From NCBI RefSeq assembly GCF_003334785.1, contig NZ_QOWV01000001.1: DNA of 64,000 bases. One strand, given 5' to 3'. The translations under genes and the position numbers were made by a program. Under the pieces are notes generated by a model. That model was not told where the DNA came from and ran no database searches. It worked only from the letters and a program-made list of their open reading frames with translations. The stretch is from Escherichia coli. GTDB taxonomy: Bacteria; Pseudomonadota; Gammaproteobacteria; Enterobacterales; Enterobacteriaceae. Position 1 is the stretch's first letter. Each line of letters begins with the position of its first letter. This document shows positions 1 through 5,161 of the stretch, one piece after another.

Positions 1-76
1 GGGTCGTTAGCTCAGTTGGTAGAGCAGTTGACTTTTAATCAATTGGTCGCAGGTTCGAATCCTGCACGACCCACCA
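1..76 (+). tRNA. lysZ: tRNA-Lys (anticodon UUU)
   Basis: 76-nt sequence with cloverleaf-compatible arms, anticodon loop cttttaa and 3' CCA; first of two identical copies. Which lys locus it is comes from the remembered K-12 order. Confidence 0.9.
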
Positions 77-208
77 ATTTAAAGGTGGTTACTGGTAGAG
101 AACGTGAAGGATAACGTTGCGTTAGCAACGGCCCGAAGGGCGAGACGAAGTCGAGTCATCCTGCACGACCCACCATCCTGAATGATTAAGGCAGCATAAT
201 CCCGCAAG

Positions 209-284
209 GGGTCGTTAGCTCAGTTGGTAGAGCAGTTGACTTTTAATCAATTGGTCGCAGGTTCGAATCCTGCACGACCCACCA
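209..284 (+). tRNA. lysQ: tRNA-Lys (anticodon UUU)
   Basis: Exact duplicate of 1-76, located immediately upstream of nadA. Confidence 0.9.
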
Positions 285-1641: not shown

Positions 1642-2361
1642 ATGGATTTTTTTAGTGTGCAGAATATCCTGGTACATATACCAATAGGGGCAGGCGGTTA
1701 TGATCTCTCATGGATCGAAGCGGTAGGCACGATCGCCGGGTTGCTGTGTATTGGCCTTGCCAGTCTGGAGAAGATCAGCAACTACTTCTTTGGCCTGATC
1801 AACGTCACCTTGTTTGGCATTATTTTCTTTCAGATTCAGCTGTATGCCAGCCTGCTATTACAGGTGTTTTTCTTTGCCGCGAATATTTACGGTTGGTATG
1901 CGTGGTCGCGACAAACCAGTCAGAACGAGGCGGAGTTGAAAATTCGCTGGTTGCCATTGCCGAAGGCACTCAGCTGGTTGGCGGTTTGCGTTGTTTCGAT
2001 TGGTCTGATGACGGTATTTATCAATCCGGTGTTTGCATTTTTGACCCGCGTGGCAGTCATGATCATGCAAGCATTAGGATTACAGGTTGTGATGCCTGAA
2101 CTGCAACCGGACGCTTTCCCGTTCTGGGATTCATGCATGATGGTGTTATCTATCGTGGCAATGATTCTGATGACGCGTAAGTATGTGGAAAACTGGCTGT
2201 TGTGGGTGATTATTAACGTGATTAGCGTCGTTATTTTTGCACTTCAGGGCGTTTACGCCATGTCTCTGGAGTACATCATCCTGACCTTTATTGCGCTCAA
2301 CGGCAGCCGGATGTGGATCAACAGCGCACGTGAAAGAGGCTCACGCGCGCTGTCCCATTAA
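1642..2361 (+). CDS. pnuC: Nicotinamide riboside transporter
   Basis: 239-aa polytopic membrane ORF directly downstream of nadA. Confidence 0.92.
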
Positions 2362-3299
2362 TGGTGATGATGTGAATGGCCAGACACCCCTTCATTCAGG
2401 TGGCAGTCTGGCCCATGACAAGGTTGATATTCCATCTGAATGGTGGCGTGCTCAATCTGATAGTGATCCATCAGGTAGTGTTGGATCTGATCCAACAAGG
2501 CATCGTGATCGTGTGGCGGGATCACCTGCACATGCAACGTCATCACCGGCTTCTCGCCTACCATCCATACATGTACATGGTGCACATTGCGGACTTCCGG
2601 GATTTCCCGGCACATACGACGCTTCAGTTCAGCGATATCCAGCGATACCGGTGCACCTTCAAGTAATTCATTCACGCTATCTTTCAACAGTCGCCACGCG
2701 CTACGCAGAACCAGAAGCGACACCAGTATCGAGAGAATGGGGTCAGCAGGTGTCCAGCCAGTCCAGATAATAATCAACGCGGCAATAATAGCCCCAACCG
2801 AACCCAGCAGGTCCCCGAGCACATGCAGTGCCGCTGCTCGTACGTTGAGGTTTTTCTCTTCGCTGCCGTGATGAAGTAACCAGAAAGAAAGTATATTTGC
2901 CAGCAACCCAGCCACGGCAATTGCCATCATCATGCCGCCCTCGACCGGACGCGGCGTGCGGAAGCGTTCTATCGCCTCCCAGACAATCAAAATGGTAATT
3001 ACCACGAGGGCTATGGCATTCACAAACGCCGCGAGCGTGGTCAGTCTTAGCCAACCGAAAGTGTGGCGAATGGTGGGAGGACGACGTGAAAATTGCACGG
3101 CGAGTAGGGCGAAAAGCAGGGCGGCAGTATCGGTCAACATATGACCCGCATCGGCCAGCAATGCCAGAGAACCAGAAAGAAAACCACCAACGACTTCTAC
3201 CAGCATAAACCCGGCAGTCACGCCGAAAGCATACAACAAGCGACGAGCATTATTATCTTCTGGCAGGTGTGAGGACGTGTGTGAGTGTGAGTGCGCCAT
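2358..3299 (-). CDS. zitB: Zn(II)/cation diffusion facilitator efflux protein
   Basis: 313-aa ORF with His-rich termini ([11 protein letters not shown]...HSHHHH) and a CDF-type transmembrane core. Confidence 0.93.
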
Positions 3300-3371
3300 G
3301 ACGAGTCATCCCTTAATTATTCTCACTTAACTTTATGACATCATACTGCTTTTAGAAGTGAAAAATTAAAA

Positions 3372-3400
3372 GGGAGAGACTCCGCTCTCCCATTATTGGC
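3372..3400 (-). terminator. Rho-independent terminator downstream of ybgS
   Basis: gggagag/ctctccc hairpin with a T-run on the minus strand. Confidence 0.6.
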
Positions 3401-3412
3401 TATTTTGCAGGG

Positions 3413-3793
3413 TTACTGCGTGGTACCGTCGGTTTTGGTATCGACATCATTATTGATGCCATCACCGGTTTGTACCTTTTTATTGATATCCGGACAGCGA
3501 CCATCTTTGCACATGGTGTTCTTGTGCTCTTCATCTTTGGTCATTCCGTCATTGTTCATTGAAGAACCATCCGAATGCAGCATTGTGCCGCCAGAACCGG
3601 TATTTACCCCGTTATTGTCGACGTTATTTGGCGCGACATTTTCACGGGCGTCAGGGGCTACCTGGCCCGCATCAGCTGCGGCGTTTGCCTGGCCGTTATT
3701 AGTTTGCGCTCCGCTATCGGCAGCCAGTGCGGCACCGCTGGCAAGGCTTAGAGTGGCAGTCAGAAATAATGTGGCCAGTTTTGTCATTTTCAT
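3413..3793 (-). CDS. ybgS: Secreted low-complexity protein YbgS
   Basis: 126-aa ORF with a signal peptide ([24 protein letters not shown]) and an N/G/D/T-rich mature region. Confidence 0.85.
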
Positions 3794-4020
3794 AGGATGC
3801 TCCTGTTATGGTCGTTATGTCGGATAACCTCTTCCAACAGTGCATTTGCAGGTGAATATAAGGCATTGGTTTAAGATTTCAGCCAGGTTATGAAACGCAG
3901 CAGAGAATCTTGAAATAATTAACAAACAAAGGAGTTACAGTTAGAAATTGTAGGAGAGATCTCGTTTTTCGCGACAATCTGGCGTTTTTCTTGCTAATTC
4001 CAGGATTAATCCGTTCATAG

Positions 4021-4038
4021 TGTAAAACCCCGTTTACA
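4021..4038. promoter_or_regulatory. TyrR box (TGTAAA-N6-TTTACA)
   Basis: Exact tgtaaa accccg tttaca about 70 bp upstream of aroG. Confidence 0.7.
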
Positions 4039-4108
4039 CATTCTGACGGAAGATATAGATTGGAAGTATTGCATTCACTAAGATAAGTATGGCAACACTG
4101 GAACAGAC

Positions 4109-5161
4109 ATGAATTATCAGAACGACGATTTACGCATCAAAGAAATCAAAGAGTTACTTCCTCCTGTCGCATTGCTGGAAAAATTCCCCGCTACTGAAAA
4201 TGCCGCGAATACGGTTGCCCATGCCCGAAAAGCGATCCATAAGATCCTGAAAGGTAATGATGATCGCCTGTTGGTTGTGATTGGCCCATGCTCAATTCAT
4301 GATCCTGTCGCGGCAAAAGAGTATGCCACTCGCTTGCTGGCGCTGCGTGAAGAGCTGAAAGATGAGCTGGAAATCGTAATGCGCGTCTATTTTGAAAAGC
4401 CGCGTACCACGGTGGGCTGGAAAGGGCTGATTAACGATCCGCATATGGATAATAGCTTCCAGATCAACGACGGTCTGCGTATAGCCCGTAAATTGCTGCT
4501 TGATATTAACGACAGCGGTCTGCCAGCGGCAGGTGAGTTTCTCGATATGATCACCCCACAATATCTCGCTGACCTGATGAGCTGGGGCGCAATTGGCGCA
4601 CGTACCACCGAATCGCAGGTGCACCGCGAACTGGCATCAGGGCTTTCTTGTCCGGTCGGCTTCAAAAATGGCACCGACGGTACGATTAAAGTGGCTATCG
4701 ATGCCATTAATGCCGCCGGTGCGCCGCACTGCTTCCTGTCCGTAACGAAATGGGGGCATTCGGCGATTGTGAATACCAGCGGTAACGGCGATTGCCATAT
4801 CATTCTGCGCGGCGGTAAAGAGCCTAACTACAGCGCGAAGCACGTTGCTGAAGTGAAAGAAGGGCTGAACAAAGCAGGCCTGCCAGCACAGGTGATGATC
4901 GATTTCAGCCATGCTAACTCGTCCAAACAATTCAAAAAGCAGATGGATGTTTGTGCTGACGTTTGCCAGCAGATTGCCGGTGGCGAAAAGGCCATTATTG
5001 GCGTGATGGTGGAAAGCCATCTGGTGGAAGGCAATCAGAGCCTCGAGAGCGGGGAGCCGCTGGCCTACGGTAAGAGCATCACCGATGCCTGCATCGGCTG
5101 GGAAGATACCGATGCTCTGTTACGTCAACTGGCGAATGCAGTAAAAGCGCGTCGCGGGTAA
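4109..5161 (+). CDS. aroG: DAHP synthase, Phe-sensitive
   Basis: 350-aa ORF; MNYQNDDLRIKEIKELLPP matches AroG. Confidence 0.95.
   Translation: MNYQNDDLRIKEIKELLPPVALLEKFPATENAANTVAHARKAIHKILKGNDDRLLVVIGPCSIHDPVAAKEYATRLLALREELKDELEIVMRVYFEKPRTTVGWKGLINDPHMDNSFQINDGLRIARKLLLDINDSGLPAAGEFLDMITPQYLADLMSWGAIGARTTESQVHRELASGLSCPVGFKNGTDGTIKVAIDAINAAGAPHCFLSVTKWGHSAIVNTSGNGDCHIILRGGKEPNYSAKHVAEVKEGLNKAGLPAQVMIDFSHANSSKQFKKQMDVCADVCQQIAGGEKAIIGVMVESHLVEGNQSLESGEPLAYGKSITDACIGWEDTDALLRQLANAVKARRG

Follow-up and report, generated by a model that had tools for sequence, protein, structure and literature searches.

The stretch of DNA analyzed here (the window, 64 kb in length) carries on its minus strand, at positions 3413..3793, an open reading frame consisting of 126 codons plus a stop codon, which starts with ATG and corresponds to the ybgS gene; all the ybgS features located below are on this same strand. 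The neighboring genes are arranged in the order nadA, pnuC, zitB, ybgS, aroG, gpmA, galM, and galK. The product is the YbgS protein of E. coli (b0753, 126 aa, UniProt P0AAV6), the locus being annotated in RefSeq as that of a "YbgS-like family protein," and both the gene and its own Pfam family were already known. Residues 3-126 align with positions 1-124 of the 124-position Pfam model PF13985 (YbgS-like) with E = 8.6e-62 and a score of 207 bits, and many RefSeq E. coli chromosomes contain an identical copy (100%) of an 811-bp stretch spanning ybgS. In view of this full-length match and the identity to annotated E. coli ybgS, the gene name proposed in the initial annotation is right; the open reading frame described there is also a real one, which lies on the minus strand and the translation of which contains all three of the peptide strings quoted. 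The comparison with the PF13985 family showed no difference, protein and locus being the same; the window protein shows the traits of this family, namely a cleavable N-terminal signal peptide and a small exported product, and no biochemical function has been assigned to the family. Sequence searches located ybgS in all the complete E. coli genomes (5,426/5,426). A Shine-Dalgarno sequence, AGGAG (3800..3804), is present 6 nt 5' of the ybgS ATG, inside the ACAGGAGCA block, which is unchanged across the 16-23 ybgS upstream regions aligned.

Residues 1-24 (3722..3793) form a Sec signal peptide cleaved after an A-L-A motif. A signal peptide had been noted in the initial annotation, and two mass spectrometry (MS) studies report the removal of these 24 residues: in MALDI top-down experiments, mature YbgS was detected without its 24-residue signal peptide and a Cys71-Cys76 disulfide was inferred from the MS/MS data (PMC8629258), and the removal of residues 1-24 and an inferred disulfide were also reported in a second top-down study (PMC5594050). 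The mass that we computed agrees with these data: the monoisotopic value obtained from the window sequence cut after A24, with one disulfide and one deamidation, is 10457.57 Da, versus 10457.58 Da observed, and only cleavage after residue 24 fits the latter value, since the neighboring sites are at least 71 Da off. Residues Cys71 and Cys76 of the mature protein are C95 and C100 of the precursor. YbgS was also recovered among the periplasmic proteins in the vesicles of a tolA mutant, and its abundance is such that it shows up as a dominant peak when whole cells are analyzed by MALDI and LESA (PMC8629258; PMC5594050). The identity of YbgS and its localization can both be taken to be practically certain.

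The mature protein (102 aa) is rich in Asn (14.7%), Asp (12.7%), and Gly (12.7%); it contains no Phe, Trp, or Tyr residues and only 13 Ile, Leu, Val, and Met residues in total, which bears out the compositional bias and the paucity of hydrophobic residues pointed out initially. Relative to the background frequency assumed for this residue, the excess of Asn gives a binomial P of about 1e-5. Mature YbgS has a GRAVY value of -1.15, a pI of 4.36, and a net charge of -8, and it falls on the disordered side of the boundary in the charge-hydropathy plot. The AlphaFold2 model based on a 32-sequence alignment has a mean pLDDT of 50 and a pTM of 0.14, with no residues reaching 70, and apart from a short helix spanning residues 86-93, no notable secondary structure is predicted. 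The PDB sequence search performed with YbgS yielded no relatives, even at E values of up to 1. YbgS is thus predicted to be intrinsically disordered, and the disorder check recommended in the initial annotation supports the idea of a periplasmic disordered protein, based on both the AlphaFold mean pLDDT of 50 and the charge-hydropathy position. When the Asp/Asn/Gly stretches were inspected by eye for EF-hand-type calcium loops, no 12-residue loop with the required Gly at position 6 was found.

The conservation of YbgS was analyzed in an alignment of 40 orthologs from species genomes, to which distant members were then added, invariance being assessed in 32 diverse sequences. This alignment indicates that YbgS is not featureless: the protein has three conserved islands, one of which includes an invariant C-x-D-G-x-C motif, linked by a spacer of variable length. 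The first island, located N-terminally in mature YbgS (residues 33-64; 3602..3697), contains the APNNVDN motif. The columns showing at least 97% identity in the 40 orthologs are G34, A36, N37, A40, A42, G43, A46, P47, A49, N52, A54, P55, N56, and N64, and among these residues, N37, P55, and N64 are unchanged even when the distant members are included. The variable Gly/Ser/Thr/Asn spacer, as delimited in the ortholog sequences and their alignment, spans residues 65-83 (3545..3601); its length differs greatly among genera, which results in total YbgS lengths ranging from 95 to 165 aa. The in-frame duplications and deletions occurring among E. coli strains are mostly located in the N-terminal half, before the spacer, while one is inside it. 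The conserved core (residues 84-102; 3488..3544), which shows the pattern M-T-K-D-E-x-H-K-N-x-M-C-K-D-G-x-C-P-D, comprises two MxKDx units and the C95-x4-C100 disulfide loop; the residues C95, D97, G98, and C100 forming the C-x-D-G-x-C loop are invariant in the 32 diverse sequences. The C-terminal motif K-T-D-G-T-T-Q (residues 120-126; 3416..3436) is at least 97% identical in the 40 orthologs and is kept as KTDGT(T/S)Q in the Rahnella-, Sodalis-, and Pantoea-type members. The 40 residues preceding the Cys pair hold 82% of the His and 87% of the Met residues of the mature protein in most members; in the most distant members, the His and Met residues have been lost and the Cys loop is unchanged. 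The description of YbgS as a low-complexity protein consequently holds as far as its biased composition is concerned, but not in the sense of uniform low complexity, since conserved motif islands are separated by a variable spacer.

The zitB gene (2358..3299) is on the same strand as ybgS, immediately downstream and 113 nt away, and the adjacency noted in the initial annotation is therefore real. Between the ybgS stop codon and the zitB start codon lies an intrinsic terminator of ybgS (3362..3391), which reads GGGAGAG-CGGAGT-CTCTCCC and then TTTTAATTTT. It was detected in the terminator scan as a GC-rich hairpin followed by a T-run, and the same stem is present in the MFE fold. The hairpin has been kept in 42 of the 44 related loci, where the loops differ and the stems show compensatory changes (GGAGAGC/GCTCTCC, GGAGGGC/GCCCTCC, and GGCGAGC/GCTCGCC). 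The presence of a conserved terminator between the two genes suggests that ybgS is insulated from zitB. In a published operon table, ybgS appears as a single-gene unit, and separate RNA-polymerase sites were located by genomic SELEX in the zitB-ybgS and ybgS-aroG spacers. The intervening terminator and the single-gene listing both speak against co-transcription with zitB, and judging from the sequence, ybgS is monocistronic and set apart from zitB.

Upstream of the gene, phylogenetic footprinting yielded a putative sigma-S-type -10 element, C-TACAAT followed by TTCTAA (3947..3953), which is kept as C-TA(C/A/G)A(A/C)T-TTTTTAA in nearly all the genera in the footprint alignment. The C-TACAAT element resembles the sigma-S -10 consensus, and we infer that the -10 element at 3953..3947 belongs to the ybgS promoter, which would imply the existence of a leader of about 147 nt. 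Another promoter candidate obtained in a consensus scan, CTGAAA-16-TATATT (3882..3855, with TATATT at 3860..3855), was rejected as the main promoter because it is unconserved in other genera. The footprint alignment also showed a conserved leader block, ATGCACTGTTGGAAGAGGTTATCCGAC (3819..3845). The GCACTGT sequence in the leader is predicted to be able to pair with the Shine-Dalgarno region ACAG..GCA (-6 kcal/mol with RNAalifold), covariation being uninformative about this anti-Shine-Dalgarno pairing (1/11 pairs, covariation term +0.18). An Rfam scan of positions 3250-4150 with E values of up to 1 yielded no family, the only match being a chance one with MicX (17 versus 75 bits). The leader palindrome GTTAT-N5-ATAAC was considered as a Zur-like operator and rejected, since its spacing varies from N5 to N7 across genera and no Zur box is present.

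In a phmmer search of 1.84 billion proteins, the YbgS family was found to consist of 61 clusters at 50% identity, and the distribution of these sequences indicates that the family is restricted to Enterobacterales and vertically inherited. The distant members occur in Sodalis, Rahnella, Nissabacter, Pantoea-type strains, and Cedecea. Every member examined occupies one and the same chromosomal slot, lying between aroG and zitB (or pnuC), and aroG adjoins ybgS in the divergent upstream position in every locus examined, including those of the distant members. The order gpmA-aroG-ybgS-zitB-pnuC-nadA, which brings together functionally unrelated genes, has been kept in 40/40 species loci, and YbgS is the fastest-evolving member of this block, with 49-98% identity versus 76-98% in the case of ZitB and 90-99% in that of AroG. 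In two loci (L042 and L050), a response regulator and a hybrid histidine kinase are located between ybgS and the CDF gene, while in a third one (L052), ybgS is followed directly by pnuC and the locus contains no ZitB homolog.

Both the export of YbgS and the RpoS dependence of the gene have already been published. In strain EDL933 (O157:H7), ybgS was found to be 82-fold RpoS-dependent, and it is part of the Crl regulon. It was also assigned to an osmolarity/HU cluster with dps, katE, poxB, and osmY-type genes, and to a multi-stress hub with osmY, dps, and others. Acrylic acid induced ybgS 5.4-fold, together with yhcN, nrdH, and sufA, and the Klebsiella homolog of YbgS was reported to change alongside csiE, raiA, and cspD. 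On overnight LB agar, the protein was detected together with HdeA, HdeB, and YahO (PMC8629258). The sole phenotype found in the literature is a modest reduction in the fitness cost of a plasmid in Salmonella devoid of ybgS; the literature search yielded no biochemical activity and no clear loss-of-function stress phenotype.

The zinc-related role suggested in the initial annotation supposes that YbgS is a periplasmic binder or buffer of zinc or other divalent metals, which would act as a partner of the CDF exporter ZitB, capturing the exported Zn(II), for example. Several features are compatible with this role: in E. coli and nearly all the loci examined, zitB directly follows ybgS on the same strand; mature YbgS is an acidic protein with many Asp and Asn residues; its His and Met residues are mostly clustered before the Cys pair, as mentioned above; and some members, such as the Rahnella-type protein P0156 with its 5 His residues, have His-rich inserts there. 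However, since the whole gal-gpmA-aroG-ybgS-zitB-pnuC-nadA block is conserved, the adjacency with zitB, which is set in a frozen block of unrelated genes, says nothing specific, and it is not obligate, since a two-component system intervenes in two lineages and a third one lacks zitB at this locus. The two genes are parted by a conserved terminator, and the control described in publications is of the RpoS/Crl and osmotic kind, no reports on zinc having been found. The Zur box TGTTATAWTATAACA had no match in the whole 64-kb window, even when up to 3 mismatches were allowed, and the window scan thus provided no Zur operator that would assign ybgS to zinc homeostasis. No link between ybgS and zinc was found in the literature covered, and neither of the two papers naming both ybgS and zitB, one of which is the genomic SELEX study, connects them functionally. 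As regards the protein itself, both Cys residues are oxidized to a disulfide in vivo, the His and Met residues have been lost in the Pantoea-type members and in P0180, and the YbgS sequences match no canonical metal-binding family in Pfam or NCBIfam. CDF exporters are ubiquitous, whereas YbgS occurs only in Enterobacterales, which means that proteins of the ZitB type do not need YbgS. A zinc-binding partnership with ZitB therefore seems to be very improbable: the adjacency looks like inherited gene order rather than a functional link, and the functional connection with zinc and zitB proposed initially is not supported, in view of the terminator, the RpoS/Crl and osmotic control, the lack of a Zur box, the frozen synteny, and the interrupted adjacency. 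A generic kind of metal binding by the His/Met/Asp-rich core of the protein is conceivable, although this cluster is not universal in the family.

The clustering of the His, Met, Cys, and Asp residues and the MXKDX-like units are also compatible with a role involving redox reactions or metals. YbgS might be a periplasmic redox buffer or a sacrificial oxidant sink, in which HOCl or peroxide would oxidize the Met residues and the Cys pair, both of which would subsequently be recycled, by analogy with MsrX/MrpX. Like the MXKDX proteins (TIGR02953, including MsrX/MrpX), YbgS is small, periplasmic, and equipped with a signal peptide, and its core holds two MxKDx pentapeptides, MTKDE and MCKDG; weak matches with the penta_MxKDx model TIGR02953, all of them below the threshold, recur in the family (E = 2.8e-6 in P0141, 0.016 in P0130, and 0.098 in E. 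coli). The MXKDX protein MsrX has been described as a methionine-rich periplasmic peptide serving as a sacrificial hypochlorite scavenger (PMC8315932). In addition, ybgS was placed among the oxidative-stress genes in a Salmonella evolution study, because of its two Cys residues, and its co-induction by acrylic acid with yhcN, nrdH, and sufA points in the same direction. However, the TIGR02953 scores range from 12.6 bits (E. coli YbgS) to 27.2 bits (P0141, the best member), as compared with a curated cutoff of 41. The MXKDX proteins are tandem arrays rich in Met, whereas YbgS has two units at most (0-2 across the family) and is not Met-rich, with only 4 Met in the 102 residues of the mature E. 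coli protein (3.9%) and a single one in some members; its Cys loop and its N- and C-terminal motifs are outside the MXKDX description, and Met is not among its invariant residues, which are C, D, G, and C. No MXKDX proteins were present among the 61 phmmer matches in the 1.84 billion representatives. In Brucella (B0021-B0019), the MXKDX gene is associated with msrPQ-type methionine sulfoxide reductase genes (PMC8315932), and no genes of this type were found in the window or in any of the related loci examined, over a distance of about 5 kb. In the light of these comparisons, a sacrificial oxidant sink of the MsrX/MrpX kind seems unlikely, and the same can be said of the idea that YbgS might be an Enterobacterales-only sigma-S periplasmic redox or metal buffer, constituting a minimal, diverged analog of MsrX/MrpX. 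If the latter idea were true, the C-x-D-G-x-C loop and the Met/His cluster would either bind a soft metal or alternate between an oxidized and a reduced state, and YbgS would thereby protect the envelope proteins in the stationary phase. Asr (NF033636), Spy, CpxP, and ZraP are also small, stress-induced periplasmic proteins, and some YbgS members gave weak sub-threshold matches with Asr (E = 7.7e-5, P0130) and Spy (1.1e-4). However, Asr differs from the acidic YbgS in being basic, Spy, CpxP, and ZraP adopt a helical fold, and we found no evidence of homology between any of them and YbgS: the Asr and Spy matches were rejected because they scored 23.5 versus 50 bits and 22.5 versus 174 bits, respectively, and mainly cover the signal peptide and the biased N-terminus. 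The NCBIfam matches with cytochrome c-550, CpxP, CopL, ZraP, and others were also rejected, since they are far below the cutoffs and involve the signal peptide or the biased N-terminus.

The very strong conservation of the motifs, as compared with the freely variable spacer, suggests another possible role, that of a specific adaptor or regulator, the motifs of which would bind envelope proteins or the cell wall, while the spacer would serve only as a tether; YbgS would then contribute to signaling or assembly rather than to bulk protection. Patterns of this kind, with conserved motifs and variable spacers, are typical of disordered proteins acting through short linear motifs, and the in-frame indels tolerated among E. 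coli strains are in keeping with this possibility. However, no partner was found in the literature, and the abundance of YbgS, as attested by its dominant MALDI/LESA peak, is more in line with a stoichiometric or bulk role than with regulation. A dedicated adaptor or regulator is a rather doubtful proposition, and one that overlaps with the protective function proposed below more than it excludes it. Quite another picture emerges from the legacy label of "putative homeobox protein," according to which YbgS would be a DNA-binding regulator. This label persists in UniRef names and in papers, but YbgS undergoes export with cleavage of the signal peptide, Pfam gives only PF13985 and no homeodomain, and YbgS is acidic (pI 4.36) and predicted to be disordered. 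A homeodomain or a cytoplasmic DNA-binding identity is refuted by the export and domain evidence, the likelihood of this reading being next to nil, and the "homeobox/DNA-binding" label, which databases and a 2025 paper still carry, is incorrect, given that YbgS is exported.

On balance, we think that YbgS is probably a disordered protective stress protein of the periplasm, belonging to the RpoS/Crl regulon, exported via the Sec pathway, and playing no part in zinc homeostasis. The protective mechanism taken by itself is a more tentative matter, about which we have somewhat more doubt than confidence. Hydrophilins are reportedly defined, following Garay-Arroyo and colleagues in 2000, by a Gly content above 6% and a hydrophilicity index above 1. 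Mature YbgS, with its Gly content of 12.7% and its hydrophilicity index of 1.15, has a composition of this type, although the hydrophilins are a physicochemical class and not a family, and YbgS shows no sequence homology with YciG, YmdF, YjbJ, YahO, or OsmY. The two hydrophilin criteria have been confirmed qualitatively (PMC5437024). Like the hydrophilins and the sigma-S-dependent disordered proteins (YciG, YmdF, and YjbJ, and the periplasmic YahO and OsmY), YbgS is RpoS-dependent and is induced under osmotic and stationary-phase conditions, and intact-cell top-down MS detected it alongside YciG, YmdF, YjbJ, and YahO (PMC5594050). It differs from the YciG-type proteins, which are cytoplasmic, in that it is periplasmic and acidic and has a disulfide loop, and its protective activity is putative.

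In the mechanism that we propose, monocistronic ybgS is expressed under the general-stress control of RpoS (sigma-S) and Crl; the protein is exported via the Sec pathway, its 24-residue signal peptide is removed, and the resulting 10.46-kDa acidic protein, predicted to be disordered, accumulates in the periplasm when cells are stressed or in the stationary phase. YbgS might act there as a highly hydrated polyanionic shield or as a chaperone-like factor, the conserved motifs possibly contacting envelope partners and the spacer providing a flexible tether. In the corresponding architecture, the disulfide loop is preceded by the predicted short His/Met-containing helix and flanked by the N-terminal island and the KTDGTTQ motif. 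A shield devoid of specificity could do without invariant motifs, which makes it probable that YbgS has a specific partner or ligand.

These results mean that the hypothesis of a zinc-related role, as based on adjacency, is unsupported, the adjacency of ybgS and zitB reflecting the synteny of the chromosomal backbone with a conserved terminator in between. They present YbgS as one of the more abundant uncharacterized periplasmic stress proteins of E. coli, in which the invariant disulfide loop and the two other motifs are concrete targets for mutagenesis with a view to assigning a function to YbgS.

One block of the ybgS leader, ATGCACTGTTGGAAGAGGTTATCCGAC (window 3819-3845, minus strand), is near-invariant between genera. 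Part of this block, GCACTGT, is complementary to the Shine-Dalgarno region of the gene, ACAGGAGCA (window 3798-3806, minus strand), its predicted pairing partner, and this complementarity hints at translational control of ybgS by pairing between the two segments. Since the pairs themselves are invariant, covariation gives no test of this pairing, and a search of Rfam with the leader returned no match.

Further upstream, a C-TACAAT conserved ahead of an AT-rich element (window 3947-3953, minus strand) resembles a sigma-S -10 element and, judging from the sequence, might be the -10 of ybgS. This putative element is located about 150 nt 5' of the ATG, and the leader extending from the predicted start would therefore be unusually long for such a small gene. 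The divergent aroG promoter region carries a TGTAAA-N6-TTTACA palindrome, overlapping a promoter-like TTTACA-17-TAGATT (window 4022-4061, plus strand); the palindrome, which is TyrR-box-like in keeping with the regulation of aroG, and the promoter-like site are distinct from the ybgS control elements. At the start of the window (about 53-284, plus strand), upstream of nadA, correspondence with annotated locus L001 places the last tRNA-Lys gene of a cluster of tRNA-Lys and tRNA-Val genes, together with an annotated RtT sRNA.

Within E. coli, the strain versions of window 3413-3793 (protein sequences P0003, P0004, P0005, P0007, P0011, and P0015) are in-frame length variants arising from short duplications and deletions, the majority of which fall within the protein's N-terminal half. 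They include a duplication of GQANAAADA, a deletion of NNVD, and a duplication of SGAALAAD spanning the signal-peptide cleavage site, among others; these variants may plausibly have arisen by slippage at short direct repeats. Among the 5,432 matches that the ybgS-aroG region has in complete E. coli genomes, two come from records that are classed as plasmids; two copies of the region occur in some genomes.

In Pantoea-type and related lineages (L042:5459-9123 and L050:5409-9217), ybgS is separated from the CDF exporter gene by two inserted genes, one for a response regulator of the GerE type and the other for a hybrid histidine kinase that is about 1,030-1,070 aa long and has SBP_bac_3, HisKA, HATPase_c, receiver, and Hpt domains. 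One metagenomic enterobacterial lineage (L052:5001-6079) encodes a divergent YbgS of 95 aa between aroG and pnuC, which has neither the Cys pair nor the C-terminal motif; zitB is absent from this locus, and ybgS may be decaying in this lineage. In one Citrobacter amalonaticus assembly (L021:5001-5373), ybgS is frameshifted close to the C-terminus and the zitB and pnuC matches at this locus are also displaced; the ybgS copy is either a pseudogene or an artefact of the assembly.

The names of UniRef clusters still carry the obsolete label "putative homeobox protein" for YbgS, and it is because this label has persisted that YbgS was discussed as a DNA-binding hub protein in a 2025 proteomics paper. 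The idea of a homeobox or DNA-binding protein is at odds with export to the periplasm. In the Crl-regulon table as extracted from PMC6469107, ybaY is given as b0753 and ybgS as b0897; the b-numbers appear to be shifted by one row, and the identifiers in this table need checking before they are reused.
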